Program-made: the position numbers and the translations under genes | Assembly: GCA_965153355.1 (NCBI GenBank) | Contig: OZ231126.1 | Coordinates: forward strand, 37,076,001 to 37,140,000 | Direction of reading: 5' to 3' | Length of the DNA: 64,000 nt | Origin: Flaccisagitta enflata | Taxonomy: Eukaryota | Shown here: piece after piece, positions 1-29,097 of the stretch | Position numbering within the stretch: the stretch's first letter is position 1 | Layout: each line of letters opens with the position of its first letter | The notes under the pieces: generated by a model | What the model saw: only the letters and a program-made list of their open reading frames with translations | Told to the model about the DNA's origin: nothing | Databases searched by the model: none

Positions 1-1505
1 GTTCATATTTGGTGGGAAGTTGTGCTAGGGTAAGGCGCTTTACATCCTATCCGATTTTTGTGATCCGACCAACCCAACCGGCCCAACCAGCTTACCGGCC
101 TAAAAGTGAAAAACGTGCATAACTTTGGCATTTTTCAACCGATTTGGCTGAAATTTGGTATGGAGTCTCTAAATGGAAGGCCTCAACATATGTATATGAT
201 TTATATGCATTTGAGCATGCTAACCGGCCAAACCGACCTACCACCCAACCAGCCAACCGGCCTAAAAGTGAAAAACTTGCGTAACTTTGTCATTTTTCAA
301 CTGATTTGGTTGAAACTTGGTATGGAGTCTCTAAATGGAAGGACTCAGCATATGCAAACTATTTATCCTGTTAAACCAGCCTACCACCCAACCAGCCTAC
401 TGGCCTAAAAGTGAAAAACGTGCATAACTTTGGCATTTTTCAACTGATTTGGCTGAAATTTGGTATGGAGTCTCTAAATGGAAGGCCTCAACATATGTAT
501 ATGATTTATATGCATTTGAGCATGCTAACCGCCAAACCGACCTACCACCCAACCAGCCAACCGGCCTTAAAGTGAAAAACTGCGTAACTTTGTCATTTTT
601 CAACTGATTTGGTTGAAACTTGGTATGGAGTCTCTAAATGGAAGGACTCAGCATATGCAAACTATTTATCCTGTTAAACCAGCTACCACCCAACCAGCCT
701 ATGCCTAAAAATGAAAAACGTGCATAACTTTGGCGTTTTTCAACCGATTTGGTTGAAATTTGGTATGGAGTCTCTAAATGGAAGGACTCAACAAATGTAT
801 GTGATTTATATGCATTTGAGCATGCTAACCGGCCAAACCGACCTACCACCCAACCAGCCAACCGGCACAAAAGTGAAAAACTTGCTTAACTTTGTCATTT
901 TTCAACTAATTTGGTTGAAACTTGGTATGGGGTCTCTAAATGGAAGAACTCAACATATGCGCACTATTTATCCTGTCAAACCAGCCTACCACCCAACCAG
1001 CCTACCAACCAAAAGGTGATAAATGTGCATATCTTTGGCGTTTTTCAACCAATTTGGTTGAAATTTAGTATGGAGTCTCTAAATGGAAGGACTCAACACA
1101 TGTATGTGATTTATTTATGTTTGAGCATGCTAACCGGCCAAACCAACCTACCACCCAACCAGCTTACCGGCCTTAAAGTAAAAACTTACATAAATTTGAC
1201 ATTTTTCAACCAAATTGGTTGAAACATGGTATGGAGTCTCTAAATGGAAGAACTCAACATACGCACACTATTTATCTAAACCAGCCTACCACCCAACCAC
1301 CCTACTAGCCTAAAAGTGAAAAACGTGCATAACTTTGTCATTTTTCAACGGATTTGCATGAAACTTTGTATGGCGGCTCTAAATGTAAAGTCTTATAGTT
1401 TTGGCGAACTTACAGGGTTAGCGATCTTTTGGTCATAGCGATCTTACGGAATTGGTGATCTTTAACCCCCTTCCGTCGCGGACCCAGATACTGTTCAGAT
1501 TTTTT
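1..1505 (+). mobile_element. Helentron/DINE-1-like non-autonomous element, cut by the left window edge, with an internal ~305-bp (~164+141) tandem array
   Basis: Closely similar to 22990-23860 but with more internal units; ends in the subterminal repeat TTCCGTCGCGGAC (1471-1483) then CCAGATACTGTTCAGA and a T-run. Family assignment is inferred from architecture. Confidence 0.7.
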
Positions 1506-2137
1506 CTCCAGATCTTTCACTTTCGCCTCCGCCACGGCCAGCTTCTTCCGTTCCTCCTCCAATTCATCCGTCAGAGCTCCCACTTGTCCTTTGGCCAGCT
1601 TCACTTCATCTTGAACATCTTTCAAGCTCTCCGTCAACTCATCAACAAGTTTCTCGTTGGCGCTTGCCTTCGACTTTTCCTGGGCCACTTCTTTTTTCAA
1701 ATTCTTCACCTGTTCCTCTCTCTCTTGCAGCTTTTTCTTTTCCTCCGCCAAATTCGCCGTTAAATTTCCCACGCGGTGGCGCGCCTCTTCAACGACTCTC
1801 CTGCCCTCAGCTAAATCCCTCTGCAGCCTCTCGATAGTATTGAGAGCCGTCTCCAGTTGCTTCCTCAGCGCCTGCTTCTCTAATGCTAATTTGGCTATTT
1901 TCTCCATGAATTTTCCCTGCTGATCCTGAAGATGTGTAACCTTCTCCTTCAATTGACCCAGCGTATTTTTGCATTCTTCATCCTTAGATGTGAGCGATGC
2001 TTCCAAAGCCGCCACCTTCTCCTGCAATGTACGTATCTCCTCGCTTGTCTTTGTCGCCTTCTGGATGAGCTTGCTTTTCTCTTCATTCAGGGCGACGATA
2101 AGTGCATTTGCCTCTTTGAGCTGTTTTTTGAGGGTTT
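1410..2137 (-). CDS. Exon 3 of an uncharacterised secreted coiled-coil protein; last ~30 codons come from the adjacent repeat
   Basis: Acceptor ccactcAG at 2139-2138, phase 1; G from exon 2 + AA = Glu, then TLKKQLKEANALIVALNEEK..., over 200 aa of heptad-like E/K/L/Q-rich sequence with varied codons. Confidence 0.7.
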
Positions 2138-2153
2138 CTGAGTGGGTAATGTG

Positions 2154-2315
2154 CAGCCCTGATTTTAGAGCGGGCCCGCGGGCCCGAGGCCCACGTTTTG
2201 GCTGTCGGGCCCGCAAGTTTTTCTTGCTGCGGGCCCCACCGGCCCGCTCTCATTTTGCTTGAAATTTTTTGTTATTGCTCAAGTGGAGACATTGATTTTT
2301 AATCACACTTATGCT

Positions 2316-2387
<72 letters not shown>

Positions 2388-2870
2388 GACAGAGAGACTC
2401 TTTTTTCTCTCTCTCTTTTCTTTTTCTCTTTCTTTTCTTCTTCTTTTTTTCTTTTTTTTCTTTTCTTTTTCCTTTTTTTTCTTTTTTCTTTTTTTCTTTT
2501 TTTATCTTTTTTTTCCTTTTCTTTTTTCTTTTTTTCTTTTTTCTTTTTTTTTTTTCCTTTTTTCTTTTTTCTTTTTTCTTTCTTTTCTTTTTTCTTTTTT
2601 TCTTTTCTTTTTTTCATATCATAATTTTTTCTTTTTTTCAGTTTCCTTTTTTTAAATTCTTTTTTTCTTTGATCTCTTTGTGTTGTGTATACATTCTTTT
2701 CCTTTCATAACCATACCATCTTTTATCATTCCTTTTATTTTCCCTCTCTCTCTCTCTCCCGACAGTAGTTCTGGCACATGTCGGGCCCGCTGTTTCTCTG
2801 TCGGGCACGCTAAAGTTGATGGGAGCGGGCCCGACTGGCCCGCTGAAGAAAATCACTAAGATCAGGGCTG
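2154..2870. mobile_element. hAT-type non-autonomous element
   Basis: Terminal inverted repeats CAGCCCTGAT / ATCAGGGCTG; perfect 8-bp target-site duplication GTAATGTG (2146-2153 and 2871-2878); subterminal GGGCCC motifs. Confidence 0.85.
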
Positions 2871-2886
2871 GTAATGTGACACTATA

Positions 2887-3946
2887 CAGACGGGACCCTA
2901 ATAAGAGTGGAGCAGGGACCCAAAGTGTTACATGCCCTCCTACAGCTCAGATCGTTCAATTATTTTTACCAATAAAGGCGGCTCTCGCCGTAGGAAAAAG
3001 GTCGTAAGTGCGAGGTTTTGAAATTTTTTGTGATTGTGTTTTGTCTGGTTTATTGCCTTTTTTTCTCTAGGCATCTTTTTGGTTTGTTCCACTCTCTACA
3101 TGTGTTTCTCTTTTTGAGACAGAGGCATCCAACCCCCATCCACACCCCAACCCCAACCCCCACACACAAGCATCTAGACCGCTTGTTTTTCCACTTTTCC
3201 ACTTGGACGAACCAACGAACCAACAGACTGATGGATGGATTGACAGACAAAGCCTCTCATAGAGTCCAGAGTTGAAATGAGAGAGAGACTGTGCTGCCAG
3301 GATGCACAATCATCACCTGGGATATTTCAAAGTTCAAATAAACTTCAATTAACTCAATTCCTCATTTTTGGAAAAAATGTGAAAAATGCGAAAAAATATA
3401 AAAAGATTTAAAAAATCATAGCTCCAAAACTATTGATCGCACAGAATTCTGCTTGGTGTCATCTGAAAGAGGAGAATTAGCTCTTTCTTAGCTGTTAATT
3501 TCATGCGTAGTCCCATTCTGCCCGAAAAATGCATCAACTTTCTCAAACGCCTCATAAAACAAAGGGAAATCCGTTTTCCTCTGCAGGACTCAAAAAGACC
3601 AAAGGGACTTCGTCTCTTCGACTTTTTTCCAAATCATTTGCCAACACGGTTGACACTTCAGGTGAATACAATTGTTGCCACCGTGGCGATTTTTCAATTT
3701 CCAATATAAACCCCCCCCCATAGGCTACTTTTAGACCAAAATTTGAGAAAAAAAAATATTTTTGGGCTTCGGGAGTGGTTTTAGGGGGTTCAAGGTGGAA
3801 ATTAAAAAATCGCCAATGTGGCGCCAGTTGTATTCACCTGAGGTGTCTATCGCAACTGTTAGTGAGGAAATTGATCGAACCGTGTGGGCTGTAGGGGGGC
3901 ATGTTACAGTTGGGTCTCTCCTCCGCTCTTATTAGGGTCCCGTCTG
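2887..3946. mobile_element. Tc1/mariner-like MITE, family CAGACGGGACCCTAATAAGAG, copy 1 (with internal extra sequence)
   Basis: TIRs CAGACGGGACCCTAATAAGAG / CTCTTATTAGGGTCCCGTCTG; left flank TA, right flank TT; same ends as 16643-17046 and 23937-24599. Confidence 0.8.
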
Positions 3947-4034
3947 TTGTTATTAGATTGACAAAGTGAAAATTCGAAATGTTATGAAAACAGTTTGTGT
4001 TATGATAGTCGCACTTACCACTTCCGCCACCTAC

Positions 4035-4179
4035 CGATGTCTTCAGACGAATCACCGCCGATTTCGATGTTCTCAACTGCCTTGAGCAACTTGTCCAGTT
4101 TTCCCGAGTTCTCAACAGTCTCCTTTTCCAGTCTTTGCAACCCTGGAATGATCTGCGACCCGGTTTCTGGCGGAGAGAT
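4035..4179 (-). CDS. Exon 2 of the uncharacterised secreted coiled-coil protein (ISPPETGSQ...GGDSSEDI)
   Basis: Acceptor cattttaacAG, 145 nt open (48 codons + 1 nt), donor G|GTAGGT; phases match both neighbours. Not in the ORF track. Confidence 0.7.
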
Positions 4180-4279
4180 CTGTTAAAATGTGATTATGTG
4201 AGGCAGATATTGTTCGTGATGACTTGGCTTACATGCCAACCACACAGTACGACTTTGACTGTATCTGCTTGAGACTGAC

Positions 4280-4453
4280 CGCCTTGATTTCCTCGTGAAG
4301 TAGTTTTATCTCCTTTGATAAGCAAACCGAATAACATCCTTCGCCGGGACCCTCTTGGTACGGCTGAAAGATATCGTTTAAGTTTCGTGCCGAGCTCCAA
4401 GGTAGCACGGAAAAGCAGAAAATAACGCCGATGAAATTACAGATTTTTATCAT
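4280..4453 (-). CDS. Exon 1 of the uncharacterised secreted coiled-coil protein (signal peptide MIKICNFIGVIFCFSVLPWSSA)
   Basis: ATG at 4453 (AAAATG), hydrophobic N-terminus ending S-S-A, CYSVC motif, 58 codons, phase-0 donor GCG|GTCAGT, 100-nt intron to exon 2. Confidence 0.65.
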
Positions 4454-5176
4454 TTTTAGGCCGATTCAAAATTTGTCTCAATGTTAAGGATTAAGAATGA
4501 TTCTTTCTGCCTGAATTATCGATAAGGCTTTTCTGCGTGGGTTTTCACTTGAAAGTGGTCGCCTTTTATCCAGCCCTGTAGGTTCACCTGTCTACTTCAC
4601 ACAAATTAAATCGTGAAAGAGGGCCGTTGATATGGAATTTTCTTTGATGGGGCGCTGAATTTCCTTTTTACGACCGAAACTAGACGAGTGACGACCCATG
4701 ACGTATTGATTGGATAGCTTTAAATTATGTTGCTGTTTCTCTCTTTCTCTGTATATGTATCCGCTATATAAGAATAAAACAATTTAACAAAGAATATTCT
4801 AAGAATGAAAAAAAAAATCTACATCTGTTATTACCTATTTTAATATTTTTAGAGTTTATGAAAAAATAATGATTATTTGAAAAAATGAATAACATTATTT
4901 TTGAGGAATTCTTATCTTAAGATTTTCAAAAATTTGAAATCATAGATTGTATAAGCAGATGACATAAAAAGAATCAAATGTGATGCATATTAGAGCAAAA
5001 TGAGGCTCAAGAAGAGTTAATCTAAAAACCAAGTTAATCAAGTTAATCTAAAAAGCACTCTGGCTAGAAGGGGTAGTTAGGTTTGAAAACCACTAAAGTC
5101 CGATTCTGCCTTGAGTGGTTAAGGAGCTTACTGCCCTCATTTTCAAATGAGGTTTCGGCCTTGAGTGCTCTCCTCG

Positions 5177-5190
5177 TATGTGTGTGTGTG

Positions 5191-5253
<63 letters not shown>

Positions 5254-5289
5254 TTGTCTCTTTCTCCCATTCTCCCATTCTCCCATTCT

Positions 5290-5353
<64 letters not shown>

Positions 5354-5670
5354 GTCTGTCTGTCTCTCTCTGTCTCTCTCTGTCTCTCTCTGTCTCTCTC
5401 TGTCTCTCTCTGTCTCTCTCTGTCTCTCTGTCTCTCTCTGTCTCTCTGTCTCTCTCTGTCTCTCTGTCTCTCTGTCTCTCTCTGTCTCTCTCTGTCTCTC
5501 TCTGGAGTACATATTGTTATTTAGAATCTAAGTTACAAGCCTTAAAGTTTTCTCATTATTTAGAATCTAAATAACAAGCCTTAAAGTTTTCTCATAACTG
5601 ATTGTCTATCTTTCTGTTTTTTTTCTTAAATACTCCTTGCTTATTTTCTATGTTCTCCCCATCTACTCTT

Positions 5671-5727
<57 letters not shown>

Positions 5728-6313
5728 TCTTTTTTTTCTCTTTCTTTTTTCTCTTTTTCTAACCTTGACATAATAGAAATTGTATGATTTTTTTTTTAGA
5801 TAACACAAATGAGAATATGTTTTAATAGGAAAAATATATTTGCATTTGCATTTGAAAAAAAATGTCTTTTTTGGCATTTGCTTCATAGATTTCTCAGAAA
5901 TTAGAAGAATTTTATTTTATTCAGCTAATATTAGCCTTGACCTCATTAGAATAAATCTATTTATATTCTTAATGTACCCAGGGCATCCTTTTTAAAAAAA
6001 AACATCTGAAAGAAATATTGTTATTTTTTTAAATTCTATATATTTTGATAAATTGTAGGTTTTTTGAGGGAGCAATTTTTATATCTTTCTTTAAAATTGT
6101 TTCCTGCAAACATATTGTTGACAAGCAGATTCAGTACATAAAAAATATCCATGATATTTGTGAGTTTTGAATAAAGAGTAAAAAAAAGAAAGTAAATGAT
6201 ATCAATGTTAGGACATGAAAGTTCATTTCATTAGCCATAACTTGAAAATGTAGGTATGTGTACATGGTAACTGTAACAGTTATGAATAACAGATATGAAA
6301 GGAGAGATATGAA

Positions 6314-6409
<96 letters not shown>

Positions 6410-6481
6410 GAGAGAGAGACAGAGAGAGAGAGAGAGACAGACAGAGAGAGAGAGACAGACAGAGAGAGAGAGACAGACAGA

Positions 6482-6543
<62 letters not shown>

Positions 6544-6552
6544 GAGAGAGAC

Positions 6553-6601
<49 letters not shown>

Positions 6602-7225
6602 GAGAGACAGACAGAGAGAGACAGACAGAGAGAGACAGACAGAGAGAGACAGACAGAGAGAGACAGACAGAGAGAGACAGACAGAGAGAGAGACAGAGTA
6701 AGAGAAAGAGAAAAAGAAAAAAAGAAAAAAAAAAAAGAAAAAAAAAAAAGAAAGAACAAAAAAGAAAGAACAAAAAGAAAGAAAGAACAAAAGAAAGAAC
6801 AAAAAAGAAAGAACAAAAAAGAAAGAACAAAAAGAAAGAACAAAAAAGAAAGAAAAAAAAGAAAGAAAAAGAAAGAAAAAAGAAAGAACAAAAAGAAAGA
6901 ACAAAAAAGAAAGAAACAAAAAGAAAGAACAAAAGAAAGAACAAAAAAGAAAGAACAAAAGAAAGAACAAAAGAAAGAACAAAAAAAGAAAGAACAAAAG
7001 AAAGAACAAAAAAGAAAGAACAAAAAAGAAAGAACAATAAAGAAAGAACAAAAAAGAAAGAAAGAACAAGAGAAAGAAAGAACACAAGAGAAAGAAAGAA
7101 CAAGAGAAAGAAAGAACAAGAGAAAGAAAGAACAAGAGAAAAAAAGAAAAAAAAAGAAAAAGATAAGACCAAAATGAAAAAGAGAGAGAGAGAGAGAGAG
7201 AGAGATGAAAAAGAGAGAGAGAGAT

Positions 7226-7281
<56 letters not shown>

Positions 7282-7532
7282 AAAAGAGAGAAAGAGAGAG
7301 AAAGATGAACTTTATTAGGAGATGAAAAAAAGATAGAAAGATAGAATATTCAAATAATGAGAAAATAAATTATTGCATTACTCAGATTCTAAATTACAAG
7401 CAGTGAGCCGATTCTAAGTAACGCGCCTTAGAAAATTCTAAATAACGCGCTGTTCCCCTCTCTCTGTCTCTCTCTGTCTCTCTTTCTCTCTCATTCTCTC
7501 ATTCTCTTATTCTCTCATACTCTCATACTCTC

Positions 7533-7622
<90 letters not shown>
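5177..7622. repeat. Compound microsatellite / low-complexity cluster ((CT)n, (CTGT)n, (GA)n, AAAG/AAC-rich, (TG)n)
   Basis: Directly visible; source of many spurious ORFs. Confidence 0.9.
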
Positions 7623-7624
<2 letters not shown>

Positions 7625-8742
7625 AAGCGCCTGAAAGCTAAATTATTCCAGTGGCCTGATGTCTAAAAATGATTTTCGCCTGAGAGCTAAAAAAAAATTT
7701 TAGCTTTGAGGCTAATTTAAAACTCAAAGTATTGGCATGGTTTGAAAATTTATATGCGCCTAACAGCTAAAAAGCATGCACCTGATGTCTAAAAAAGAGG
7801 GAGGCATTAAGAAACAGATATAAAAAGCAGTTCGACCAAGGGAGCAACAAATAAACAAGAGGACAAAATGTCTGATGATCAATAGTCCGCAATAAAAACA
7901 CATAGGAAATCATAAAATGCAGTAGATGGTAGAGCATGCACAAGCAATAGTAAATTTAAATAAAGTCAATTTGTAAATGGAATATATTACTAATTACTGT
8001 TTATTGATATAGAGTATGTTTTTTTGTAATGCATCATATCTCTGATCTTAAGCATCATAGCATGATGCGGATTGCACCATTGCATTGAACATGATAAACT
8101 ATATTTTTTTAGTTTTTTTGATATCATGATGCATCATGACGTATCTCTACCACAATGCCAATGAATACCCTGATATCTGCAACATCTTGAAAATGGCTGT
8201 CGGATTTTCTCTCTTTAAAATATGAGAAGGTTCAATTAATCAGATGATAAATATTCAAAAGAGGCTTTCCTGGGATTTTCTGCCATTAATACTTGCCCGT
8301 TTATAATGTATACTAATTGCTGTCCTTTGAGAGACTTCATAAAAAAAGCAGCTTCACTAAAGACAAAAAATTGCATGGTTACTTGAAATGCCCTCTAATG
8401 AAGCCCAACTGTACTGTATATCTAAAGAATAGTATCAGCAAATAAAACATGTGTAAAAAGTTGAAATTGAGATTTGTGTATTATTTGAAATGTAGCTTTC
8501 GACGTTTTCCATTCCCTTTTATCATTTTCTGCCTTATTCTTTTTTTAGAACTTAGGCCAATCACTGAGAGAAGGCCAATCACTGAGAGAAGTTTTAGAAG
8601 TTAGGCCACTTTTTCTGACAAAATCTTTAGAAATAAAATGCTTCAAAATTGGCTGAAAAGCTAAAGAAATATTTTAGCTCTCAGGCTAATCTGTCATGAG
8701 AAAATTTTAGCTGTTAGGCGCTTTAGCTGTGGGGAGATACAC

Positions 8743-8786
<44 letters not shown>

Positions 8787-8801
8787 TGTGTGTGTGTCTC
8801 T

Positions 8802-8886
<85 letters not shown>

Positions 8887-9041
8887 CTCGCTCTCTCTCG
8901 TTCTCGCGCTCTTCGCGCTTCGCTCTCTTCTCTCTGCGCTCTCTCTTGCTCTCTCTCGCTTTCTCTCGCGCTTCTCTCTCGCGTCTTCGCGCTCTTCGCG
9001 CTTCTCTCTTCGCGCTCTCTTCTCTCGCGTCTCTTCCTCTC

Positions 9042-9100
<59 letters not shown>

Positions 9101-9174
9101 CTTTCTCCCCCCTTCCTGTTTCTCTCTCTTTCTTCCTCTCTCGTGCTGCACTAAATGTACTTTAGGACGTCTGA

Positions 9175-9396
<222 letters not shown>

Positions 9397-9488: not shown

Positions 9489-9566
9489 AACGCTGATGGA
9501 ACTTCTCAATCAAATGGATGGGTTCGACACGCTTGGCAAAGTGAAAATGATCATGGCCACAAACCG
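9489..9566 (+). CDS. PSMC6: Rpt4 internal exon ([26 protein letters not shown])
   Basis: tgtatAG acceptor, GTGGGT donor, phase 2 on both sides; continues the AAA domain. Confidence 0.95.
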
Positions 9567-9694: not shown

Positions 9695-9843
9695 ACCCGA
9701 CACATTGGATCCTGCTTTGCTTCGGCCCGGACGGTTGGACCGAAAGATCGAAATTCCGCTTCCCAATGAGCAGTCGAGGATGGAAATTCTCAAAATCCAC
9801 GCCAATCCCATCGCGAAGCACGGCGATATCGACTGGGAAGCAG
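9695..9843 (+). CDS. PSMC6: Rpt4 internal exon ([23 protein letters not shown]...DIDWEA)
   Basis: ttcAG acceptor, G|GTAGGC donor; second region of homology / arginine finger. Confidence 0.95.
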
Positions 9844-10755: not shown

Positions 10756-10883
10756 TGGTAAAGCTTTCCGATGATTTTAACGGCGCCGATCTGCGTAACG
10801 TTTGCACCGAAGCTGGTATGTTCGCCATTCGGGCCGACAGAGACTTCGTCATCGAAGAGGATTTCATGAAGGCAGTCAGAAAG
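10756..10883 (+). CDS. PSMC6: Rpt4 penultimate exon ([43 protein letters not shown])
   Basis: aacAG acceptor phase 1; ends AAG|GCAAGT (GC donor). Confidence 0.95.
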
Positions 10884-11685
10884 GCAAGTTAAGAAAGTTG
10901 TTACGATTTTGATTTCCCATACACTGCTTTTAAAACAATTTTGTGCAAAAAATCACATAACAGTAGGTTTTACCACAGTTTTGTGTAGTATTGGGGTGCA
11001 ATAAGTCAATAACATATAAGTAGCATAAAAATAGCAAAAATCATTCCCGAGCGCTTTTTGAGTAATCTTCAAAATAGAACAAAAATTAGACCTATTTTCA
11101 ATGCCGATGCTACTGAGGTGTGTTGACTCAATTTCTGATTCCATAGGCCTATTGTTAATCCATGCTAAATTCCCTTTCATTTGATAGGTCGCACTCTATA
11201 CTTATGCAAAGAATCAAAATTTTCATTTTCAGGTGCGACAAAGCACCTCTATAACTGGCTGTGTCCGTTGGTCTGTCTGTAACGCATTCGTTCGACGATC
11301 CACACGTCGCACCTTATTGGCCTACCTGGCCTTGTTTAAATCACTATCACCGTTACAAAAAAGTAACAGTGGCTCTAAATCTGAAAACTTTATTACTATG
11401 TCAAACCACATAGTGCGACCTATCAAATGAAAGGATGTTTTGCTTAACATAACAATATGGAATAACAGGTCGCCCAAGGGCAATATGTGGTCAGCGATAC
11501 CCGTTGCCCTGCTTTGAGCAGCGGCGTAGGAGGAGGGGCGTCAGGGGCGTCAGCTGACGCCCCTAAAGTTGGACACAGATAGCAGTCGGACACAGATGGC
11601 AGTCTTAGACAATTGTTTAAAAAAAAAAAAAGGGAAAGAGGTTTAAAAAAGAAAAAAGAACAGATGTGATGGACTTTTAGGGCAT

Positions 11686-11716
11686 AGAAAGAAAGCAAGC
11701 AAGCAAGCAAGCAAGC

Positions 11717-11771
<55 letters not shown>

Positions 11772-12101
11772 GAAGGAAGGAAGGAAAGAAGGAAGGAAGG
11801 AAAGAAGGAAGGAAGGAAAGAAGGAAAGAAGGAAGGAAAGAAGGAAGGAAAGAAGGAAGGAAAGGAAGGAAGAAGGGAAAGAAAGAAGGAAGGAAAGAAA
11901 GAAGGAAGGAAAGAAGGAAGGAAGGAAAGAAGGAAGGAAGGAAAGAAGGAAGGAAGGAAAGAAGGAAGGAAGGAAAGAAGGAAGGAAGGAAAGAAGGAAG
12001 GAAGGAAAGAAGGAAGGAAGGAAAGAAGGAAGGAAGGAAAGAAGGAAGGAAGGAAAGAAGGAAGGAAGGAAAGAAGGAAGGAAAGAAGGAAGGAAAGAAA
12101 A
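11686..12101. repeat. (AAAG/AAGG)n microsatellite
   Basis: Directly visible. Confidence 0.95.
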
Positions 12102-13556
12102 GATTTGGGAGAAAAAAGAAAGATAGAAAGTAAATACAGGTTCGGACGGATTTGTAAATGCTATATGTCACTTTCCAAGGTAGACCCCCCTACAGCCCAA
12201 ACGGATCATCAAAAAGACTTGAAATTTGGCATGGACACTCACCTTAGGCCTAATCGTGGGGCCATCGAGGCGATTTTTGATCAGTTGACCCAAAGCCGCG
12301 GTATGGGGCAGGGGTGGGGTACCCCAGGGGGGGCAAAAATGTCAAAAAATTTTTTTTTGATTTTTTTCATTTTTTCGACCTGGTTACTTGTTTCGGTGTC
12401 TTTAGCACCAGAATAAAGCATCATTTTGGTTTTTACTTCGTTTGAATGCAATAATATGCTATATCAAACTTAATGAGTCATTTTTCAAATTTTTCCAGAT
12501 TTTTGACAAATTTCGAAGCTCGCAAATCAGGCGTTAAGGATAGCCAGTTCAGAACTCATCGGCCGCCTCCAGAAACAGTGCATTAGCTCTTTTTCTTCAG
12601 AAATTTACATGCAATTCTAAAACCTACATGAGGCTTTGTATGTCCGTCGGTCCACCTATTTGTGCGTTGGTCTGTGAGCATGAGTCAAAAAGCGGTAAAA
12701 CGAGCGTTTTTGATAGTTTCGTGTGTGCAGGGGAAGTGGGGTGGGTGTTGGACGCCCCTGCCCACCCGTGCGCAAAAATATTGTGACCCGGCGTCACATG
12801 TTATCCTATCATTAGTATCAAGCAGCTTGCCAATTGGTGAAAAAGAAAGTAAAGTGACCTTTGTCTCACCCAAACGCAAGAGCAAGTTAGGGTTTCAGTC
12901 GCATCCGGTCAAACTGGGACGGATATAGGATACACGGCTGTCGCAGGGGGGGGGGGGCAAGGACCACGCTTGAGGTAATTAGAGCATTTGGGCAGGAGCA
13001 GTGAGGCCAAAGACCGTAGAAACATTTATCATCATCGATGGACGGACCGACGGACTAAGATTTAGTCGCGAAGCACGCAACTTGAATTGTTCCACCGAAG
13101 TCATAGCAAACGGCTGCGCAGGGAAGCCTTCATGTTTCAGTAATTTTTAAGAGAACTTAATAAGTTGTCACAGTTACCTTGCGGTTACATATTAGAGAGC
13201 CAAATGCAAAACACAAAGCTGATGGGAAAATCCATTTTCAATTTTTTGTTTGTTTTTCCTTCAATATCAAAATCAAGAATTGTTAGAGATCGGTTATGAC
13301 GCTGAGCGATGTTGTGAAAAATTATTGTTGAAAAACGTCAAATTTCTGAGCGAAAGATAGTTTATTTACGAGATAAAAAGATGTGATAATCAAGCGATAA
13401 CCTATGATCAATATGAAATATGCACAAGGATGAAAGATTACATCATTTTGCATCAGGATAACATGAAAAACCGGAGAAAAAATGAAAAACGCGAACCAAG
13501 GAAATTGTCTAATAAACCCTCAGCTGAAAACCTCTAAATTAGATTTTGGTAAAATG

Positions 13557-13798
13557 CACCTTGATCTGGGGGCTGAGAAAAACCCGAGATGAATCTCAAT
13601 AGCTTAAATTACATGAAAAGCATACTTCTAGTTGCCCCAGTGAGATGAAATTTTACATGAAGAAAGCTGATGGTTTTGCAGAGCTTCAGTTAAAATTTCA
13701 GCTCACTGGCTTAACTAGAAGTATGCTTTTCATGTAAATTAAGCTATTGAAACATGCTAGATTCATCTCGGGTTTTTCTCAGCCCCCAGATCAAGGTG
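13557..13798. mobile_element. Palindromic MITE with CAC...GTG termini and 5-bp TSD (Transib-like)
   Basis: TIRs CACCTTGATCTGGGGGCTGAGAAAAACCCGAGATGAATCT and its reverse complement; AAATG duplicated at 13552-13556 and 13799-13803. Confidence 0.8.
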
Positions 13799-14141
13799 AA
13801 ATGACAGTTTTCTTCAAAACGCTCTCATTTGGAAACGGATTGAGCAACCAAGCTCTGCTTGGTCTTGAATGGAAGATTTTTTGTCATAGTTCATGGATCT
13901 GCTTTCATTATTTTATTGGATATGAATGGTTAGGTGTCCGTATATTTATTTCCAAGATAGTAAAAAAAATACCGGGACATCTTTTATTTGAGAAATACAA
14001 AATCATCGAGAAATGTATGAGAGCCAATTTAGCTGCAACAAAACCACGCTGGTCTTTGCAAGTAAAGTTCATTCATTCATTCATTCATTCATTCATTCAT
14101 TGAGACAGACTGATCAAGTTACGCTTCATTTTTCGTGACGA

Positions 14142-14191
<50 letters not shown>

Positions 14192-14495
14192 GAGCGACAG
14201 ATTTTGTTGCCTGCGACGTGTTTTGTGTGATAAAAAATCTATGATTTTCTTCCCCATAAATAAAAAAAAAGAAAAAAAATGCCCGCCTGTCCGCAATGAT
14301 ATCATGACCCCGCGTCACCCTTTTCTCCCCGTTGCCCTTCCCTCTCTCCGAACCCTTCGATTTTTGAAAAATTCCATTATATACAGGCCTGATTGTCATA
14401 TCACTGCGTCTGTTTCCCACAACCCACTCTAATCTTACGCTTTCAATGCAGGCGTCTATAAAAAGTTGAGTGGCTTTTGAATTATTTGCCCCCCC

Positions 14496-14532
<37 letters not shown>

Positions 14533-14678
14533 TTTTCTGCCCTGTTTGGTCAAAGAACTGTTTTCTTTCCTACCCCCATAGAGAATATGGTAAAACTTGA
14601 GTCAACATAGTATTAAATTGTATCAAATCAATAAAATCTCACCTTTTGGTACTACCTAGAGGGTTATATCTTCAGTAT

Positions 14679-14903
14679 TTTTAGTCGCGTGCTACGCGAC
14701 TCTACACCCCGCTTTGTCGGTCCGTCGGTCCGTCCGTTGGTCCGTCCCGTTGGTCGGTCTGTCCGTCCATCCCACTTTTACTTTTTTTGTTTTTTTTTAT
14801 GCGGTCTCTGGCCTCACTGCTCCTGCCCAAATGATGCATTGACCTCAATTACGGCCCCTGCCCACCCGCACGCGACTGGGGTAGCCGTGTATCCGGCCTT
14901 GTT
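14679..14903 (+). mobile_element. Short Helentron/DINE-like element
   Basis: 5' TTTTAGTCGCGTGCTACGCGACT palindrome, (GTCC/GTCG)n tract, GCCCCTGCCCACCCG core, 3' hairpin GCCGTGTATCCGGC then CTTGTT; several related copies in the window. Confidence 0.75.
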
Positions 14904-15886
14904 CTTTTTACTCCCTTGCAAAGCAAATCTGAAAGAAGATGTGTCCCTTGGTAGGAAGGTCTGAATGTAACACGAATTTTGAGAGGTCGCGAAATATACT
15001 GAAATAGTGATTTCAGAGCCTAATTGGCCAAGCCACATTGGAGCCCCAACCCTATCCCACCTTGCCCCAGCTCACCCACATTACTTCCTCTGCCCACCCC
15101 CAGCGACCACTTATTGGCTGTGTATCCGGCCTATTGCTTCTGTTCTAGCTTTTGATTTTTTTCCCCATTTCCAAATCCTTTGATTTTACTCCCCCTCTCT
15201 CCCCCCGGGGGGGGGGGGGAAGAGGAGAGATACCCAACTGAGTACACGTCTGTTTCATTGTCTGTTTCATCTTTCTCTATCTTTGTTGATGGTTACAAAT
15301 ATTTTTGCCGTTTGAAATACAACTTATGCTCTGAGTAGGAATTAAGACGGCCGATTGCAAAAGTCAAAATTGCGGAAAGCGAAATTCTTCGGTTTTGACA
15401 TTGTCCCTTCTAACGTGCATTAATCATGATTACAATAAGTTAGTTAGGTTATAATGAGTTTTCCTAGTACCTAAGACACTTTTCTAAGCAGCTAAGTTGA
15501 AAAAATGAGAAAAATCGAAAAAAAATTTTTTGACATTTTTGCCCCCCAGGGGTACCCCCACCCCTGCCCCATATCGCGGCTTTGGGGCAATATATCAAAA
15601 ATCGCCTCGATGGCCCCACGATTAGGCATAAGATGAGTATCCATGCCAAATTTCAGGTCTTTATGATGATCCGTTTGGGCTGTAGGGGGGTCTACCTTGG
15701 AAAGTGACATATAGCATTTACAAATCCGTCCGAACCTGTAAGGTGTTTTTTTCTTGTTTACTTTGAGAAATATGAAAGAAAGAAAAAAAAATAAAGTGGG
15801 AAAGAAAGTATAGTTGTTTTGTCTCATTGACAATGAGATATTGTGTTGGCACTAGCAGTAACAGATTTGAGTCACTTTGTTATGGA

Positions 15887-16640
15887 TTTTTGTCCCCGAC
15901 GAACAGTTTTCGTCGGTGACTATGTGATAGCAGTGATGCGTTGTCCGTTGTTCGTTTGTTCGTTCGTTTAAAACCTTCTCATATCTTCTGAACCAGACTT
16001 CAGAAGTTCATGAAACTTTACCAGTGGTATTTTTATGTCAATGGAAGCTTGTGTACCAATTTTCAGAAAAATTCATAAACTTTTACTACCCTTTGCCTAT
16101 TATTTTTGTAGTAATATTTAGCTGGGACTTAGGTGGTTTACATAGGTAGAGGGTAGTAAAAGTTTATGAATTTTTGTTTAATTTGGTATACAAGTGTAGG
16201 GTACTAAATAAACAACCCCTGCAAAATTCGAATTAAATCGGAAGTCTGGTTTATGAGATATAAGCTTATTTATGTAGTAGTATGTTGCTAGGACTTAGGC
16301 AATTTACATAGGCAAAGGGTAGTAAAGGTATGTGAATTTTTTTCTAATTTGGTACACAAGTAGAGGGTAGTAAATAAATAACCCCTGCAAAATTCGAATT
16401 AAATCTTAAGTCTGGTTTATGAGATATTAGCTTATTTATGTAGTAATATGTTACTATGACTTAGGCAGTTTACATAGGCAAAGGGTAGCAAAGTTATGTG
16501 AATTTTTTTTTAATTTGGTATACAAGTAAAGGATATTAATTGAACTGCCCCTGCAAAATTCGAATTAAATCTGAAGTCTGCTTTTTAAGATATAAGCTTA
16601 TTAATGTAGTAATATGTTACTAGGACTAAGGCGATTTGTA
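15887..16640 (+). repeat. Repeat element with 5' palindrome, (CGTT)n tract and ~166-bp tandem units (about 3)
   Basis: TTTTTGTCCCCGACGAACAGTTTTCGTCGGTGAC start; CCCCTGCAAAATTCGAATTAAATC recurs near 16216, 16382, 16548. Confidence 0.6.
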
Positions 16641-16642
16641 TA

Positions 16643-17046
16643 CAGACGGGACCCTAATAAGAGCGGAGGAGGGACCCAAACTTTTAGCATCACCCCCTAC
16701 AGCTCAAATGGCTCAAGCATTTCTCTCACTTGCTGTGGCAATTTACACCTTAGGTGAATACAATTGGCGCCACCGTGGCGATTTTTGAATTTCCACCTAG
16801 AACACCCTTAAATTTTGCAAAATCACCCTCTGGACCCTCAAAAAATTAAACCCATTTTTTTCTTCAATTTTGAAAATTTGGGGGTGTTCTAGGTGGAAAT
16901 TCAAAAATCGCCACGGTGGCGCCAATTGTATCCACCCAAGGTGTAATCCGCCATAGCAACTAAGTAAATTGCTTGAGCTATATAGGCTGTAGGGGGTGAT
17001 GCTAAAACTTTGGGTCCCTCCTCCGCTCTTATTAGGGTCCCGTCTG
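16643..17046. mobile_element. Tc1/mariner-like MITE, copy 2 (404 bp, almost fully palindromic)
   Basis: TIRs CAGACGGGACCCTAATAAGAGCGGAGGAGGGACCCAAA; TA TSD on both sides. Confidence 0.9.
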
Positions 17047-17133
17047 TAGAGGATTTGAGTTGATGAATTTGTTTACTTGCTCATTTATTACATTCTGATT
17101 TTTCTTTAGGTTTGCCATCATGGATTTCAAGAT

Positions 17134-17690
17134 TCATCTTCAACTACTGTCATCATCTTCAACTACTGTCATCATCTTCAACTCCTGTCATCATCTTCAA
17201 CTACTGTCATCATCTTCAACTACTGTCATCATCTTCAACTACTGTCATCATCTTCAACTACTGTCATCATCTTCAACTACTGTCATCATCTTCTACTACT
17301 GTCATCATCTTCTACTACTGTCATCATCTTCTACTACTGTCATCATCTTCTACTACTGTCATCATCTTCAACTACTGTCATCATCTTCAACTACTGTCAT
17401 CATCTTCAACTACTGTCATCATTTTCAACTACTGTCATCATCTTCAACTACTGTCATCATCTTCAACTACTGTCATCATCTTCAACTACTGTCATCATCT
17501 TCAACTACTGTCATCATCTTCAACTACTGTCCTCATCTTCAACTACTGTCATCATCTTCAACTACTGTCATCATTTTCAACTACTGTCATCATTTTCAAC
17601 TACTGTCATCATTTTCAACTACTGTCATCATTTTCAACTACTGTCATCATTTTCAACTACTGTCATCATCTTCATCTACTATCATCATCC
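17134..17690. repeat. 19-bp minisatellite (CATCATCTTCAACTACTGT), about 29 copies
   Basis: Directly visible tandem array without spacers. Confidence 0.95.
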
Positions 17691-18558
17691 TCGACTACTT
17701 AATTTTTTTTCAAATTTGGAAAAAAATTTTTGAAGTAAATTTTTGAAGTAAATTTTTGAAATTTTTTAAAAAAATTTTTTGGGAAAATTTCTTTGGAAAA
17801 TTTTTTTTTTTTTTGAAATTTTTTTTGAAATTTTTTTTAAAAATTTTTTTGGAAAATTTAAGAAAAAAAATTTTAGAAAAAAAAATTTAAGAAAAAAAAA
17901 TTTTTTTTTTTTTTTTTTTGAAAATTTTTTTTGAAAATTTTTTGAATATTTTTTTTCTTAGATTTTTGCTGTTATTATCATTCATTGTTGTCATTATCAT
18001 CATCCACTATTGTTATCATTATCAAGTTATGTCATCAAAACAATATTTTTTTTTCTTGAAATTGCTGCCTTGTTCTGTATCTCATCGAGTTGCGTTTACG
18101 CTACGAGAAAGCTTCAAAAATTACAGCTTTTTTTTAAAATTACAGCTTTTTTAAAAATTACAGCTTTTTTTTAAAATTACAGCTTTTTTAAAATTACAGC
18201 TTTTTTTTTAAATTACAGCTTTTTTTTAAACGTTTTTCCATCTCATGAAATTTCTTTTTTCTTAAGATTTTTTTAATTTTTCAAAAATTATTCATTATAA
18301 TCATAATTTTTTTTTACCTCTTTAAAATTTTTAAACAATCCTATGAAATCCAAAGGTTTTTTTTCTCTGTCTTGAAATATGCACCCCTCCCCTGCAATGA
18401 TTAAACTACATGTTATTTACCTACTTTTTTTTAACTGTGATATAGATAAAAGTAATAACATAGTGAGTCGGACACAGATTGGAGCCTGACGCCCCTGCCC
18501 ATTTTCCTGCCCTACGCCGCTGGCTTTGAGTGATTGTGAATGGGAGTGAGGGGAAGCA

Positions 18559-18997
18559 GGGCAGCGGCCCCGAAGGGGACGATGTCCTGTAGAACACAGG
18601 GGGAATTTGGATTTGAGGCCTGAGAGGCCAGGTTTGAGGCCTGAGAGGCTGGATTTGAAACCTGAGAGGCTAGATTTGAGACCTGAGAGGCTGGATTTGA
18701 GACCTAAGAGGCTGGATTTGAGACCAGAGAGGCTGGATTTGAGACCTGAGAGGCTGGATTTGAGGCCTGAGAGGCTGGATTTGAGGCCTGAGAGGCTGGA
18801 TTTGAGGCCTGAGAGGCTTGATTTGAGGCCTGGGAGGTCAGATTTGAGGCCTGAGAGGTCAGATTTGAGGCCTGAGAGGTAAGACTTGAGGTCTGAGGGG
18901 CCTGATGGGGGGGGCGGACGAACAAACGCACGAACGAACGAACGAACGAAAGTCCCCTGTGTTCTACAGGACATCGTCCCCTTCGGGGCCGCTGCCC
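18559..18997. mobile_element. Inverted-repeat element enclosing a 21-bp minisatellite (GAGGCCTGAGAGGCTGGATTT)
   Basis: 44-bp inverted repeats at 18559-18602 and 18954-18997; about 14 internal units; (CGAA)n tract. Confidence 0.8.
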
Positions 18998-19452
18998 AAA
19001 AAAATGAGTCAATATAAATCAGTAGAATCTGCTTTGAAAATGATTCCAATAACTCCATTTTTTTTTCTATTTTGAAGATAACTCCAAAAGCGCTCGGGGA
19101 ATGATTTTATTTTTCATTGTAACATGTTCCTACACCCCTATATCACACAAATTCCAGAGAAGCCCATTGACAGTGAAAAATCACATAACAATGGCATTGT
19201 TATGTGATTTTTCACAGATTTTTTTTAAAGCACAGTGCATATGGGTTCCTATCTAATTCCATGCTACAGCCTTTGGCTAATTCAGGTAATTCTCTAGATT
19301 CAATCAGAAGGCCGTTCCGGCAAAATACAATCTGTCCCTGCACCTGAGCAATAATCTGTCTCTACACCAATCGATTCCAGTGTTAGCCCTACACAACAAA
19401 AAGCGATTTTAAGCGTTCTCCTTATTCTTTTTCTTTTATTTCGCTCTTTCAG

Positions 19453-19503
19453 GTCGTTGACAACAAGAAACTGGAATCCAAACTTGACTACAAGCCCGTG
19501 TGA
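19453..19503 (+). CDS. PSMC6: Rpt4 terminal exon (VVDNKKLESKLDYKPV*)
   Basis: Strong pyrimidine tract + tttcAG; KKLESKLDYKPV is the known Rpt4 C-terminus; TGA at 19501-19503. Not in the ORF track. Confidence 0.95.
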   Translation, partial: VVDNKKLESKLDYKPV

Positions 19504-21278: not shown

Positions 21279-22787
21279 TTACGAAATCTCATTTAAATAT
21301 TGGTTTTCACTATCCAAAGAGGTGAGCGTGGTTTGTAGGTCTCCGATGGCCATGTTCGAGTTCCTGTTGGCTTCGGTGATGGTGGTGGCGCTGGGGGCCC
21401 CACCGGCGCTGGTCATTAATACGGCCATGTTTTCAGACAAATTGGTAATGTCGTCGCCGTTGTTAAGGCGGGCATTCTCCGATGAGGACGCCGCGCCTTC
21501 GATCTTGATGGGCAGCTCGGCGTCGTTGGGCGCGGAAGCCGTTTGGCTGCCAGTAGGAGAGAGCGCCGAAGCCGTACTTTGCGGCGACATGGCGAGCAAC
21601 GGAACTGGTCCACGGGGTGACAGCGTAGAGATGGAAGAAGCGCCGCCCGGAGACATAGCGGCGATGGCAGAAAGCGGCGACAACGGCGCCGAGGTCGGCG
21701 TTTTGGAGCGGTGATGCGAATATCTACTCGGCAATTGATGAGGAGCGGGATAATGGGGAGGAAGGGGATGGTGTTGAGAAGGCGGTGGCGGATTGCCGTG
21801 AGGAGCGGAAGGTGGGTTGTTGTACGAATTGGAACCACCGTTATGCTGATACGAGTCGGCAGTGGGTGGTGGCGGGAAAATATTATTGTTGTTGGTAGGA
21901 TGACGATGACGCGGCTGGGAATGGTGATCCCCGGGATAAGGCACCTGGTGGTGAGGATTGTAAGGGGCAGTTGGATTGAAATGGTGATCGTTATGGTTGT
22001 TTTGGAACGACTGGGACGAGCCTTGATGGTGATGATGCTGTTGCTGCTGATGGTGATGTTGATTATTCTGCTGGTGTCGCTGGAGGTAATCAGGGAAGCC
22101 AGGATTGCTAGCTTGACGGTGACGAGGCAGCTGATGTTGCTGTTGATGGGCGTGAGGAATGGGGAGGTTGTTCGGGCCGCTCGCTGTGCCTCTGCTGCAA
22201 GGACGCGGTGAGAGTTGCTGCTGCTGCGATGACACGGTCGAGCATTGAATTTCCGCTCCGCCGAGGCAGGGGCTGCCACTTTGGTGGTAGGGAGAAGCGG
22301 ATGGCCCAAAGTTGTTCATAGGAGGCGGGGGACCGCCAGCATCGACGCAAGTGGGGTTGCCGCAATTGCAGCCAGTTTGGCTTTTCATCAAAAGATTGTT
22401 ATTGTTATGGCTGGGAGGGCCACCCATGGGAAGGCCTGGCTGGTTGGAGCTGCAGTTGGGACGTCCGCAGTTGCAATGATTGTCGGGGATAATAGGCGAT
22501 GGCATTGGAGGAAGGGATTGTTGTTGACTGGGTTGGTTGTGATGATGGTGTTGATTTGATGCGCCGCATCTTTGATGGTGATGTTGGTGATGTGCTGCAC
22601 CGGCGCGGTTACCGCATCTGCAGTTGTTAATGCCTCCAGCGTGACACCCAGAGTAATTGGGTGACATGATGGACTGGTTGGCGTCCCCATTGTCACAGGA
22701 AGATGCGTTGCAGTTACATCCGTTTCTACATCCCGTGTTGTTCTGATGTGGCGTTGGAGGTTGATGACTGCACATGCTGTTGACACC
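21279..22787 (-). CDS. GLI: Gli/Ci terminal exon
   Basis: ctaacAG acceptor phase 0; ends NMAIGDLQTTLTSLDSENQYLNEIS*, matching the conserved Gli/Ci C-terminal motif. Confidence 0.9.
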   Translation of the reverse strand, partial: GVNSMCSHQPPTPHQNNTGCRNGCNCNASSCDNGDANQSIMSPNYSGCHAGGINNCRCGNRAGAAHHQHHHQRCGASNQHHHHNQPSQQQSLPPMPSPIIPDNHCNCGRPNCSSNQPGLPMGGPPSHNNNNLLMKSQTGCNCGNPTCVDAGGPPPPMNNFGPSASPYHQSGSPCLGGAEIQCSTVSSQQQQLSPRPCSRGTASGPNNLPIPHAHQQQHQLPRHRQASNPGFPDYLQRHQQNNQHHHQQQQHHHHQGSSQSFQNNHNDHHFNPTAPYNPHHQVPYPGDHHSQPRHRHPTNNNNIFPPPPTADSYQHNGGSNSYNNPPSAPHGNPPPPSQHHPLPPHYPAPHQLPSRYSHHRSKTPTSAPLSPLSAIAAMSPGGASSISTLSPRGPVPLLAMSPQSTASALSPTGSQTASAPNDAELPIKIEGAASSSENARLNNGDDITNLSENMAVLMTSAGGAPSATTITEANRNSNMAIGDLQTTLTSLDSENQYLNEIS

Positions 22788-22850
22788 CTGTTAGACGAGA
22801 AAAATAAGAACTGGATTACTTAAAGGAGTTTATTTGAATACAATTTGTAC

Positions 22851-23860
22851 TTTTTGTCCGCGACGGAATATCATTCCGACGCGGACTAAAATTCAAGGCG
22901 GGTGGGTGTCGTCGTCGTCGTCGTCGTCGTCGTTGTTGTCGTCAGGGATTTTAAAAAATGGATAACTTTTTTATGCTTTGACCGATTTGGTTCATATTTG
23001 GTGGGAAGTTGTACTAGGGTAGGGCGCTTTACATCCTATCCGATTTTTGTGATCCGACCAACCCAACCAGCCCAACCAGCCTACCGGCCTAAAAGTGAAA
23101 AACGTGCATAACTTTGGCATTTTTCAACCGATTTGGTTGAAATTTGGTATGGAGTCTCTAAATGGAAGGACTCAACATATATATGTGATTTATATGCATT
23201 TGAGTATGCTAACCGGCCAAACCGACCTACCACCCAACCAGCCAACCGGCCTAAAAGTGAAAAATTGCATAACTTTGTCATTTTTCTACCAATTTGGTTG
23301 AAACTTGGTATGGGGTCTCTAAATGGAAGAACTCAACATATGCGCACTATTTATCCTGTCAAACCAGCCTACCACCCAACCAGCCTACCAGCCAAAAAGT
23401 GAAAAATGGGCATATCTTTGGCGTTTTTCAACCAATTTGGTTGAAATTTGGTATGGAGTCTCTAAATGGAAGGACTCAACACATATATGTGATTTATTTA
23501 TGTTTGAGCATGCTAACCGGCCAAACCAACCTACCACCAACCAGCTTACCGGCCTAAAAGTGAAAAATTTACATAAATTGGACATTTTTCAACCAAATTG
23601 GTTGAAACTTGGTATGGAGTCTCTAAATGGAAGAACTCAACATACGCACACTATTTATCCAAACCAGCCTACCACCCAACCACCCTACTAGCCTAAAAGT
23701 GAAACGGATTTGCATGAAACTTTGTATGGCGGCTCTAAATGTAAAGACTTATAGTTTTAGCGAACTTTTAGGGTTAGCGATCTTTTGGTCATGGCGATCT
23801 TATGGAATTGGTGATCTTTAACCCCCTTCCGTCGCGGACCCAGATACTGATCAGATTTTT
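22851..23860 (+). mobile_element. Complete Helentron/DINE-1-like element in the last Gli intron
   Basis: Subterminal inverted repeats GTCCGCGACGGAA (22856-22868) / TTCCGTCGCGGAC (23827-23839), adjacent partial inverted copy (22874-22886), (GTC)n, internal tandem units, T-run flanks. Confidence 0.75.
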
Positions 23861-23936
23861 CTATACAAACATAATAATGCGAGTTCTCAGTACCAACATG
23901 TCATTATAGCACTGACGGGAAATCATTGGTTATGTA

Positions 23937-24599
23937 CAGACGGGACCCTAATAAGAGCGGAAGAGGGACCCTTACAGCTCACATGGTTCAATCAACTTCT
24001 ACAATTGCAGTGACGGTTGACACCTTAAGTGGAAAGAAATGGCGCCACCATGGCGATTTTTCAATTTCCACCCTGAACCCCTTCAAACCACCCTCTAAGC
24101 CCAAAAAATCGAATCATTTTTTTTCTCAAATTTTGATATAAAATTGGTCTGTTGGGGGGGGGTTAAAGGTGAAAATTGAACAAGGTCATTAGACCCAAGT
24201 CGCGTGCGTCAGTATTTTCAGAAAGATTCCGCCAGATATACAAACAGACAGACAGACAGATATACAGATAGACAGACAGATAGATAGATAGACAGACAGA
24301 CAGACAAATTTTCAAAATGACCTCAGAATAAGTGATCTCTACCTCCCAGTACCTTCTCTAGAGTTAAAAAATGCTAAAACAAAATGCATTTAAAACGACT
24401 TTGTTACGGACCGATGGACCGACATAGTGGCTTATAGAGTCACGTAGCACGCGACTAAAAATCGTCACGGTGGCGCCAATTGTTTCCACCTAAGGTGTCA
24501 ACCGCCATTGCAAATGAGAAAATTGAATGAACCATGTGAGCTGTAGGGGGGGCATGTAACAATTGAGTCCCTCTTCCAATCTTATTTGGATCCCGTCTG
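23937..24599. mobile_element. Tc1/mariner-like MITE, copy 3, with nested insertion (~24180-24460)
   Basis: Same termini as copies 1-2; TA on both flanks. Confidence 0.8.
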
Positions 24600-24742
24600 T
24601 ACAGTAGTCAAATTCGGTCCAAATTTACTCATATTTTGCATATGTTATGTAATACATTTTCAGATAACTAAACACCTAGCGCACTTTGTAGTAAAATTGC
24701 GCTCTATCCAATAATTTAAGCCACGATTAAAACGCCTTGTAC

Positions 24743-28764: not shown

Positions 28765-28840
<76 letters not shown>

Positions 28841-29087: not shown

Positions 29088-29097
29088 TTCTTCGTAC

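Follow-up and report, generated by a model that had tools for sequence, protein, structure and literature searches.

The window analysed here is a 64,000-nucleotide stretch of the Flaccisagitta enflata genome (NCBI GenBank assembly GCA_965153355.1, contig OZ231126.1, positions 37,076,001 to 37,140,000 of the forward strand), and all coordinates below refer to it. Its left end holds part of a minus-strand gene for a secreted, stalked protein, a mobile element copy at whose edge the coding sequence of that gene ends, and, further right, the last exons of the plus-strand proteasome gene PSMC6/Rpt4. The original prediction had described the minus-strand gene as a complete three-exon unit encoding 348 aa. 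We consider that it is probably the 5' half of a larger gene for a secreted lectin-like stalk-and-head protein, disrupted in this sequence by an exonic Helentron-type insertion and nested in a PSMC6 intron. The components of the gene model are as follows.

4280-4453, minus strand: exon 1, coding part, 174 nt; signal peptide, conserved C40-x3-C44 motif, then a short helix.
4180-4279, minus strand: intron 1, 100 nt, GT-AG, phase 0; position apparently common to relatives.
4035-4179, minus strand: exon 2, 145 nt; linker and short helical segment; 3' end joined to exon 3 in RNA contigs.
2138-4034, minus strand: intron 2, 1,897 nt, GT-AG, phase 1; contains microsatellites and dispersed repeats.
1500-2137, minus strand: exon 3 up to the element (residues 107-319, derived from the gene); coiled coil, matching the homologue P0013 at 32% without gaps; cut at an A-run where the element starts.
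1410-1499, minus strand: residues 320-348 and stop of the earlier model; read-through into the mobile element, not gene-derived.

When 4453-4280, 4179-4035 and 2137-1410 (728 nt) were joined, the recomputed frame ran uninterrupted through 348 codons to a stop, confirming the GT-AG sites and the phases of 0 and 1 that had been predicted. An in-frame stop lies 12 nt 5' of the ATG, and the 957 nt of gene-derived coding sequence contain neither stops nor frameshifts. The N-terminus is hydrophobic (best 11-mer 2.81 on the Kyte-Doolittle scale), as expected of the signal-like sequence originally noted, with a signal peptide probably cleaved after about residue 22 and, by hydropathy only, no later membrane segment. 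Exon 3 has a hydrophobic period of 3.5 residues that recurs in P0013, in agreement with the long coiled coil first proposed. Pfam matches of exon 3 to crescentin, ATG16, tropomyosin and others were set aside as generic coiled coil and not taken as family assignments. On the same strand a TATA-like GATAAAA occurs at 4564-4570, approximately 110 nt upstream of the ATG.

RNA mapping covered the stretch 1395-2310 in four of 24 listed runs. Contigs from two marine metatranscriptomes of one study (X1 and X2) follow exon 3 to 2138 and then continue into a 30-nt string, unique within the window, that matches 4036-4065 at the end of exon 2; RNA depth was zero across the 172 intron bases 2139-2310 in all four runs. 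The predicted junction 4035^2137 is therefore present in RNA. Run X5, from a second study, gave two exact contigs within 1644-2016, together with a 34-nt piece at 1524-1557 that carries four mismatches and probably derives from another organism. Raw reads of X24, of which about 6 in 100 were read, matched solely the end of the element at below 90% identity and were uninformative. In a test for selection, differences between RNA and window introduced no stops and were synonymous in 4 of 10 cases compared with 21% expected (P=0.14). The gene is expressed in the sampled populations, and a spliced gene for a secreted, stalked protein is real.

A homologue of the predicted protein was identified with exon 1 as the sole query, which returned two clusters among four candidates, one of them including P0013. 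This is a 654-aa unnamed protein consisting of a signal peptide, a C-x3-C motif, a coiled coil of approximately 390 aa and, at the C-terminus, a head predicted to adopt the discoidin/F5-8C/CBM32 fold. Model residues 1-319 are colinear with P0013 (38% identity, E 1e-55), and exon 3 aligns with it in a single register giving 66 identities in 211 positions, compared with 22.7 +/- 6.9 at other coiled-coil offsets. Five proteins that represent genomic read-through (P0004, P0031, P0058, P0077 and P0112) depart from the alignment where exons 1 and 2 end, and because they break at the same places, comparison with relatives indicates that both intron positions are conserved. These breaks and the colinearity with P0013 also support the junction 4280^4179. 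Relatives' fragments mark at least four further exon borders, near P0013 residues 401, 460, 498-505, 558 and 612, and by this comparison the exon number of the true gene exceeds three. The remaining codons, about 335 in number, should lie left of the window, within which C-terminal queries from the P0013 family gave no convincing match.

A HMMER search with P0013 over 1.84 billion representatives produced 101 matches, and a domain resembling its last 150 residues was present in 86 of these 102 proteins when P0013 itself is counted. The conserved N-terminal C-x3-C motif, whose presence in the window had been noted originally, occurs in five further clusters, three of which are long enough to display a head. 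In P0013 the motif precedes the 390-aa stalk and discoidin-like head, in P0036 a short stalk and discoidin-like head, and in P0023 a stalk of approximately 140 aa and a C-type lectin domain (Pfam Lectin_C, E 5.7e-9); P0013 and both full-length short-stalk relatives with the complete motif end in a globular head. Three of the 10 clusters looked up have names, in each case that of an uncharacterised northern krill protein in which the head alone is shared. A word-index search with residues 20-160 of P0005 returned P0005 alone among 1,700 candidates, and no description of the family was found in a literature search whose coverage lacked most subscription papers and supplements. P0005 and P0011 belong to one cluster with P0013 and differ from it only N-terminally, with an acidic non-signal leader in place of the signal peptide and the switch just before the cysteine motif; this may reflect an alternative first exon or an assembly chimera. 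In P0021, P0025, P0059, P0092 and P0107, which are marine animal proteins, the discoidin-like domain occurs alongside C-type lectin, trypsin, Cys-rich and other domains, and it mostly escapes Pfam.

The head was analysed on P0013, standing in for the missing 3' part of the gene in the window, using a structure model built from 42 alignment rows (predicted local distance difference test, pLDDT, 95.6; predicted template modelling score, pTM, 0.89). The best Foldseek match was 2v72 (E 1.2e-9, template modelling score 0.76/0.82), and VIA structural comparison with this CBM32 structure gave Z 18.2 and a root-mean-square deviation (rmsd) of 1.9 over 132 aligned residues. Profile matches to CBM32 and muskelin discoidin chains, as well as Atlas searches, agree with the model, which assigns the P0013 head to the discoidin/F5-8C/CBM32 fold. 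Pfam scores for this head fall below gathering (PF00754, 20.5 against 28.2 bits; PF22633, 21.4 against 27.8 bits), PF00754 is matched at E<=0.01 in 7 of the 42 rows, and the three-domain krill protein P0025 lies above gathering at 38.4. A cysteine pair conserved in 40 and 41 of 42 rows is family-specific. The suggestion that a fibrinogen, lectin or C1q head lies left of the window was borne out in that the homologue has a lectin-type fold, of the discoidin/CBM32 kind; neither a fibrinogen nor a C1q head appears for the relatives scanned. We infer that the 3' half of the gene in the window encodes the same head as P0013.

Carbohydrate-binding modules and sugar enzymes account for all eight of the top structural matches. 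F-type lectins, including eel fucolectin 1k12 (Z 15.4) and 3cqo, superpose at Z 15.4-15.5 with rmsd 2.5-2.6 over 136 aligned residues, and F-type identity was rejected since P0013, which shares the fold, lacks the fucose motif, HX24RXDX4(R/K) as given in PMC5712786. A calcium-binding motif of the form hydrophobic-hydrophobic-D-G was found in 0 of 42 rows. With respect to ligand, the protein could possibly, if doubtfully, be a structural or adhesive extracellular rod whose head binds protein or lipid in the manner of coagulation-factor C2, neuropilin or SUN domains. The head of P0013 has neither the F-type motif nor the His/Arg pair of the family, its fold resembles that of non-lectin domains nearly as strongly (muskelin Z 17.0, SUN2 15.1, factor V C2 14.5), and its 390-aa stalk is far longer than those of P0023 and P0036. 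Set against this are the carbohydrate-related nature of all eight best structural matches and the C-type lectin head of the sister protein P0023. This explanation concerns the ligand only and is compatible with disruption of the gene.

For the stalk, three copies of P0013 residues 30-140 were modelled together and scored 0.32, compared with 0.02 for the best control. A mark of 0.32 was reached by 21 of 30 microbial solved pairs and by no single chain (0 of 23), and by 17 of 29 eukaryotic pairs (7 of 16 from animals) and again no single chain (0 of 30). The complex runs, in which the alignment was not used, shared at least 43% of contacts with pLDDT of at least 54. What the modelling supports is limited to self-association of the stalk. 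The three-residue spacing of the N-terminal cysteines is also that seen in fibrinogen and TSP1. No collagen Gly-X-Y run is present in P0013, P0023 or P0036, and the stalk encoded in the window is a heptad coiled coil. In PMC5713436 and PMC3575656, paired cysteines beside coiled coils are described as forming disulfide rings or inter-chain bonds in fibrinogen and thrombospondins.

The sequence into which exon 3 reads is the right part of a mobile element, a second and complete copy of which lies within the window in an intron of a zinc-finger gene that we take to be Gli/cubitus interruptus-like. The relevant features are these.

1 to about 1505: right part of a non-autonomous Helentron-type (HINE/DINE-1-like) element whose end, judged from the second copy, would lie approximately 139 nt left of the window.
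1471-1483, plus strand: 13-bp subterminal inverted repeat (subTIR), right arm; partner in the second copy at 22856-22868.
82-1385: central tandem array of 143/162-bp units, 305-bp higher-order period, 4.3 copies, 91% match.
1408-1447, minus strand: donor-like sites in the element, GTAAGA at 1447 and GTAAGT at 1413; use putative.
22851-23861: second, complete element copy in the Gli-like gene intron; order T-run, subTIR, hairpin, array, subTIR, T-run.

Window positions 1-1504 match 22990-23860 at approximately 90%. The translated residues 319-348 match 23858-23769 at 93%, with 109 of 117 nt identical to 23745-23861, and the homology stops at the T-run 1500-1505, which is also the limit of the match to P0013 (residue 319). 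The predicted 348-aa protein is a chimera of gene and transposon, and the claim of a complete gene failed both here, where the end and stop derive from the inserted element, and on the further exon borders of the relatives. In the second copy the subTIRs (22856-22868 and 23827-23839) are 13 bp long and 100% complementary, a hairpin beside the left one has 19-nt arms of 89% complementarity (22851-22891, -17.2 kcal/mol), a trinucleotide microsatellite run lies near the far end, and T-runs flank both ends, as also the right end of the copy at the window start. Candidates for a 3' stem-loop were only weak hairpins of -2.2 and -2.5 kcal/mol. The subTIRs, hairpin, central array and T-run flanks are those listed for HINE/DINE-1 elements in PMC4067079 and PMC7492417, and on these sequence features the element is assigned to the Helentron-type, HINE/DINE-1-like class. 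In X1 and X2 the end of the element is deeply covered, with at least seven different flanks joined at 1503-1505, and an X1 copy with another flank differs by 1 of 111 nt; the element is therefore a young multi-copy family. The second copy lies 98 nt, or in another estimate about 60 nt, above an acceptor of the Gli-like gene in the same orientation and is without both donor-like GTs present at 1-1505.

The recent origin of this sequence bears on whether a stand-alone, headless 348-aa coiled-coil protein with a functional element-derived end has been fixed by exonisation. The frame is indeed open to the stop at 1412-1410, yet the end is 93% identical to another copy and 1 of 111 nt from the X1 copy, and is therefore recent and unselected. 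Moreover, P0013 and both full-length short-stalk relatives end in a globular head and exon 3 is not joined to the element in any contig, so that such a protein appears very improbable.

Taken together, this locus would hold the 5' half of a gene whose secreted product is about 650 aa long. Following removal of the signal peptide, chains would assemble in parallel through the long coiled coil, a trimer being favoured, and disulfides between chains at the N-terminal C-x3-C would probably lock them. The resulting rod would present clustered C-terminal heads of the discoidin/F5-8C/CBM32 fold, which could bind by avidity to a repeated surface ligand such as a microbial, cuticular or matrix glycan or lipid. 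The haplotype sequenced would carry a young Helentron-type element that had entered exon 3 at the A-run 1500-1505. On transcripts of this allele the frame would continue for 29 codons into the element before reaching a stop, so that the product would be a headless rod or the mRNA would decay. We favour an exonic insertion because both the heptad register and the matches to P0013 run to the edge of the element.

A number of observations weigh against this reading. The RNA evidence for the junction is limited to one study, and in the RNA mapping no contig crosses 1504 from the coding side, so that the contigs show neither an empty site nor read-through. When the last 100 gene-derived residues were used to look for an empty-site allele at the protein level, none of 26 candidates qualified. 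The score of the stalk complex stands exactly at the mark, three copies were the sole number tried, and the confident contacts involve residues 95-140 and not the cysteines. With regard to sugar binding, the F-type fucose motif is absent from P0013 and its relaxed pattern matches 2 of 42 rows. At two positions occupied by His in 17 and by Arg in 24 of the 42 rows, P0013 carries Thr and Ser instead; these columns, which are presumed to correspond to the galactose-site ligands of CBM32, raise the prospect that sugar binding in P0013 may have been lost or changed. The 3' half of the gene lies outside the window and relatives swap heads, so its own head could differ from that of P0013. Finally, a weak phase-0 donor, GTGAAA at 1520, could place the element just inside an intron. 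Separately, a metagenome scan with exon 3 for an empty-site allele yielded one locus among 596 pattern matches (35% over 57 residues), which was taken as generic coiled coil.

That donor is the basis on which the gene might be intact, exon 3 ending at 1520, the element lying in intron 3 and a full-length, headed protein being produced. The genomic fragments of relatives are silent on an intron between P0013 residues 325 and 401, and the absence of stops or frameshifts from the 957 coding nt, together with transcription of the gene, also fits an intact allele. Nevertheless the 1520 donor is weak, and the seven codons after it stay in the heptad register, with 3 of the 7 residues agreeing with P0013, right to the edge of the element, as coding sequence would; we regard an intact gene as unlikely.

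Less likely again is that the element itself acts as a new intron within the exon, using its own donor (1447 or 1413) and an acceptor at its far end and leaving a footprint of 27-39 codons in a full-length protein. The element has two consensus donors with the frame open up to both, and in the second copy CTGAC and TTTTAG lie 30 nt short of the far end, the tail being free of stops in both phases required. Precedent exists in helitron-derived introners, which make up approximately 1% of classified cases in PMC12130899. Against this, the retained pieces of 82 or 116 nt are not multiples of three unless extra T/A letters are added, an open run of 29 codons arises in 15% of shuffles, and contigs neither join nor break off at 1447 or 1413. 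The position of the second copy near the Gli-like acceptor in the same orientation further suggests that any acceptor in the element would be weak. Were it nonetheless true, the element would be an intron generator within a working member of the family, a disulfide-locked stalk with interchangeable lectin heads and a collagen-free counterpart of collectins.

The gene lies to the left of, and on the opposite strand to, the presumed host gene.

9270-9395, 9489-9566, 9695-9843, 10756-10883 and 19453-19503, plus strand: last five exons of PSMC6/Rpt4, open frame.

A 42-aa exon at 9271 matches the proteasome-ATPase model (E 1e-14). The exon at 9270 begins mid-codon at position 212 of this 379-position model, approximately the first 55% of which is not in the window. 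Plus-strand frames of at least 20 codons in 1-9269 numbered 118; 41 that were of low complexity or wholly in the element and two rich in microsatellite were left out, and none of the remaining 75 (1422-9267) matched the model, in line with the original statement that no upstream PSMC6 exon occurs in 1-9269. PSMC6 motifs were likewise absent from the stretch scanned. The last PSMC6 intron (10884-19452) has a GC donor (GC-AG) and, since it spans 8,569 nt, long introns are normal for this PSMC6 gene. It is likely that the stalked-protein gene is nested antisense within a long PSMC6 intron, with a truncated PSMC6 copy or an assembly join as what may be present instead.

Elsewhere in the window a minisatellite of approximately 21-bp units, read by eye, lies at 17137-17695 (plus strand) inside the last PSMC6 intron. 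The zinc-finger gene at approximately 21282-33212 (minus strand) is convergent with PSMC6, and C2H2 Pfam matches were obtained in all three frames scanned. A BEL/Pao long terminal repeat retrotransposon occupies 50117-55514 (plus strand), with a 1,633-codon frame (Peptidase_A17, DUF1759, protease, reverse transcriptase and integrase zinc domain), a break and a DUF5641 frame. Another dispersed repeat family with internal inverted arms is present at 2866-2967, 3646-3947, 16639-17051 and 23935-24600, several copies being intronic.

These data point to an unnamed secreted family of marine animals in which one N-terminal cysteine motif is combined with a stalk of very variable length and a head of either the discoidin-like or the C-type lectin kind. 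The family offers a compact example of domain shuffling, and the locus described here is a candidate recognition or matrix protein. They also illustrate a trap in annotation, in that a young mobile element can lend a plausible C-terminus and stop so that a disrupted allele mimics a complete short gene. The design of signal, cysteine pair, coiled-coil stalk and lectin-fold head is familiar, whereas for the family itself no description was found. As stalked lectin-like proteins, HINE insertions and nested genes are each already known, the surprise is modest.

Comparison with known systems places the element close to HINE/DINE-1, with which it shares 13-bp subTIRs, an inverted repeat beside one subTIR, a microsatellite, an array of 140-160-bp units and T-run flanks, but its 3' stem-loop is weak at about -2.5 kcal/mol, and neither an autonomous partner nor an empty site came to light. 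The paired cysteines next to a coiled coil resemble the oligomerisation regions of fibrinogen and thrombospondins, which carry different heads, and it is by analogy with these that a disulfide ring is proposed here. With the CBM32/F5-8C/discoidin domains and F-type lectins (2v72, 4zxe, 1k12 and 3cqo) the head of P0013 shares the same beta-sandwich fold, yet identity is at most 21-22% among the matches listed, Pfam scores are below gathering, the fucose motif is missing from P0013 and there is a family-specific cysteine pair. Collectins and ficolins have a cysteine-bearing N-terminus, a stalk and clustered heads, and the protein proposed here would be built to the same plan; in contrast to them, P0013, P0023 and P0036 lack Gly-X-Y and P0013 has a different head. 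Invertebrate lectins with coiled-coil stalks include bivalve C1qDC, single-domain FReDs and secretory C-type lectins, in which, according to PMC8878817, the coiled coil is thought to oligomerise the chains in place of collagen. The family described here similarly combines a signal peptide, a coiled coil and a C-terminal recognition head, which in the relative P0023 is a C-type lectin. It differs from these lectins in that the closest relatives of the gene have a head predicted to be of the discoidin/CBM32 fold on a stalk of approximately 390 aa, and in a family-specific C-x3-C motif that is retained across different heads.

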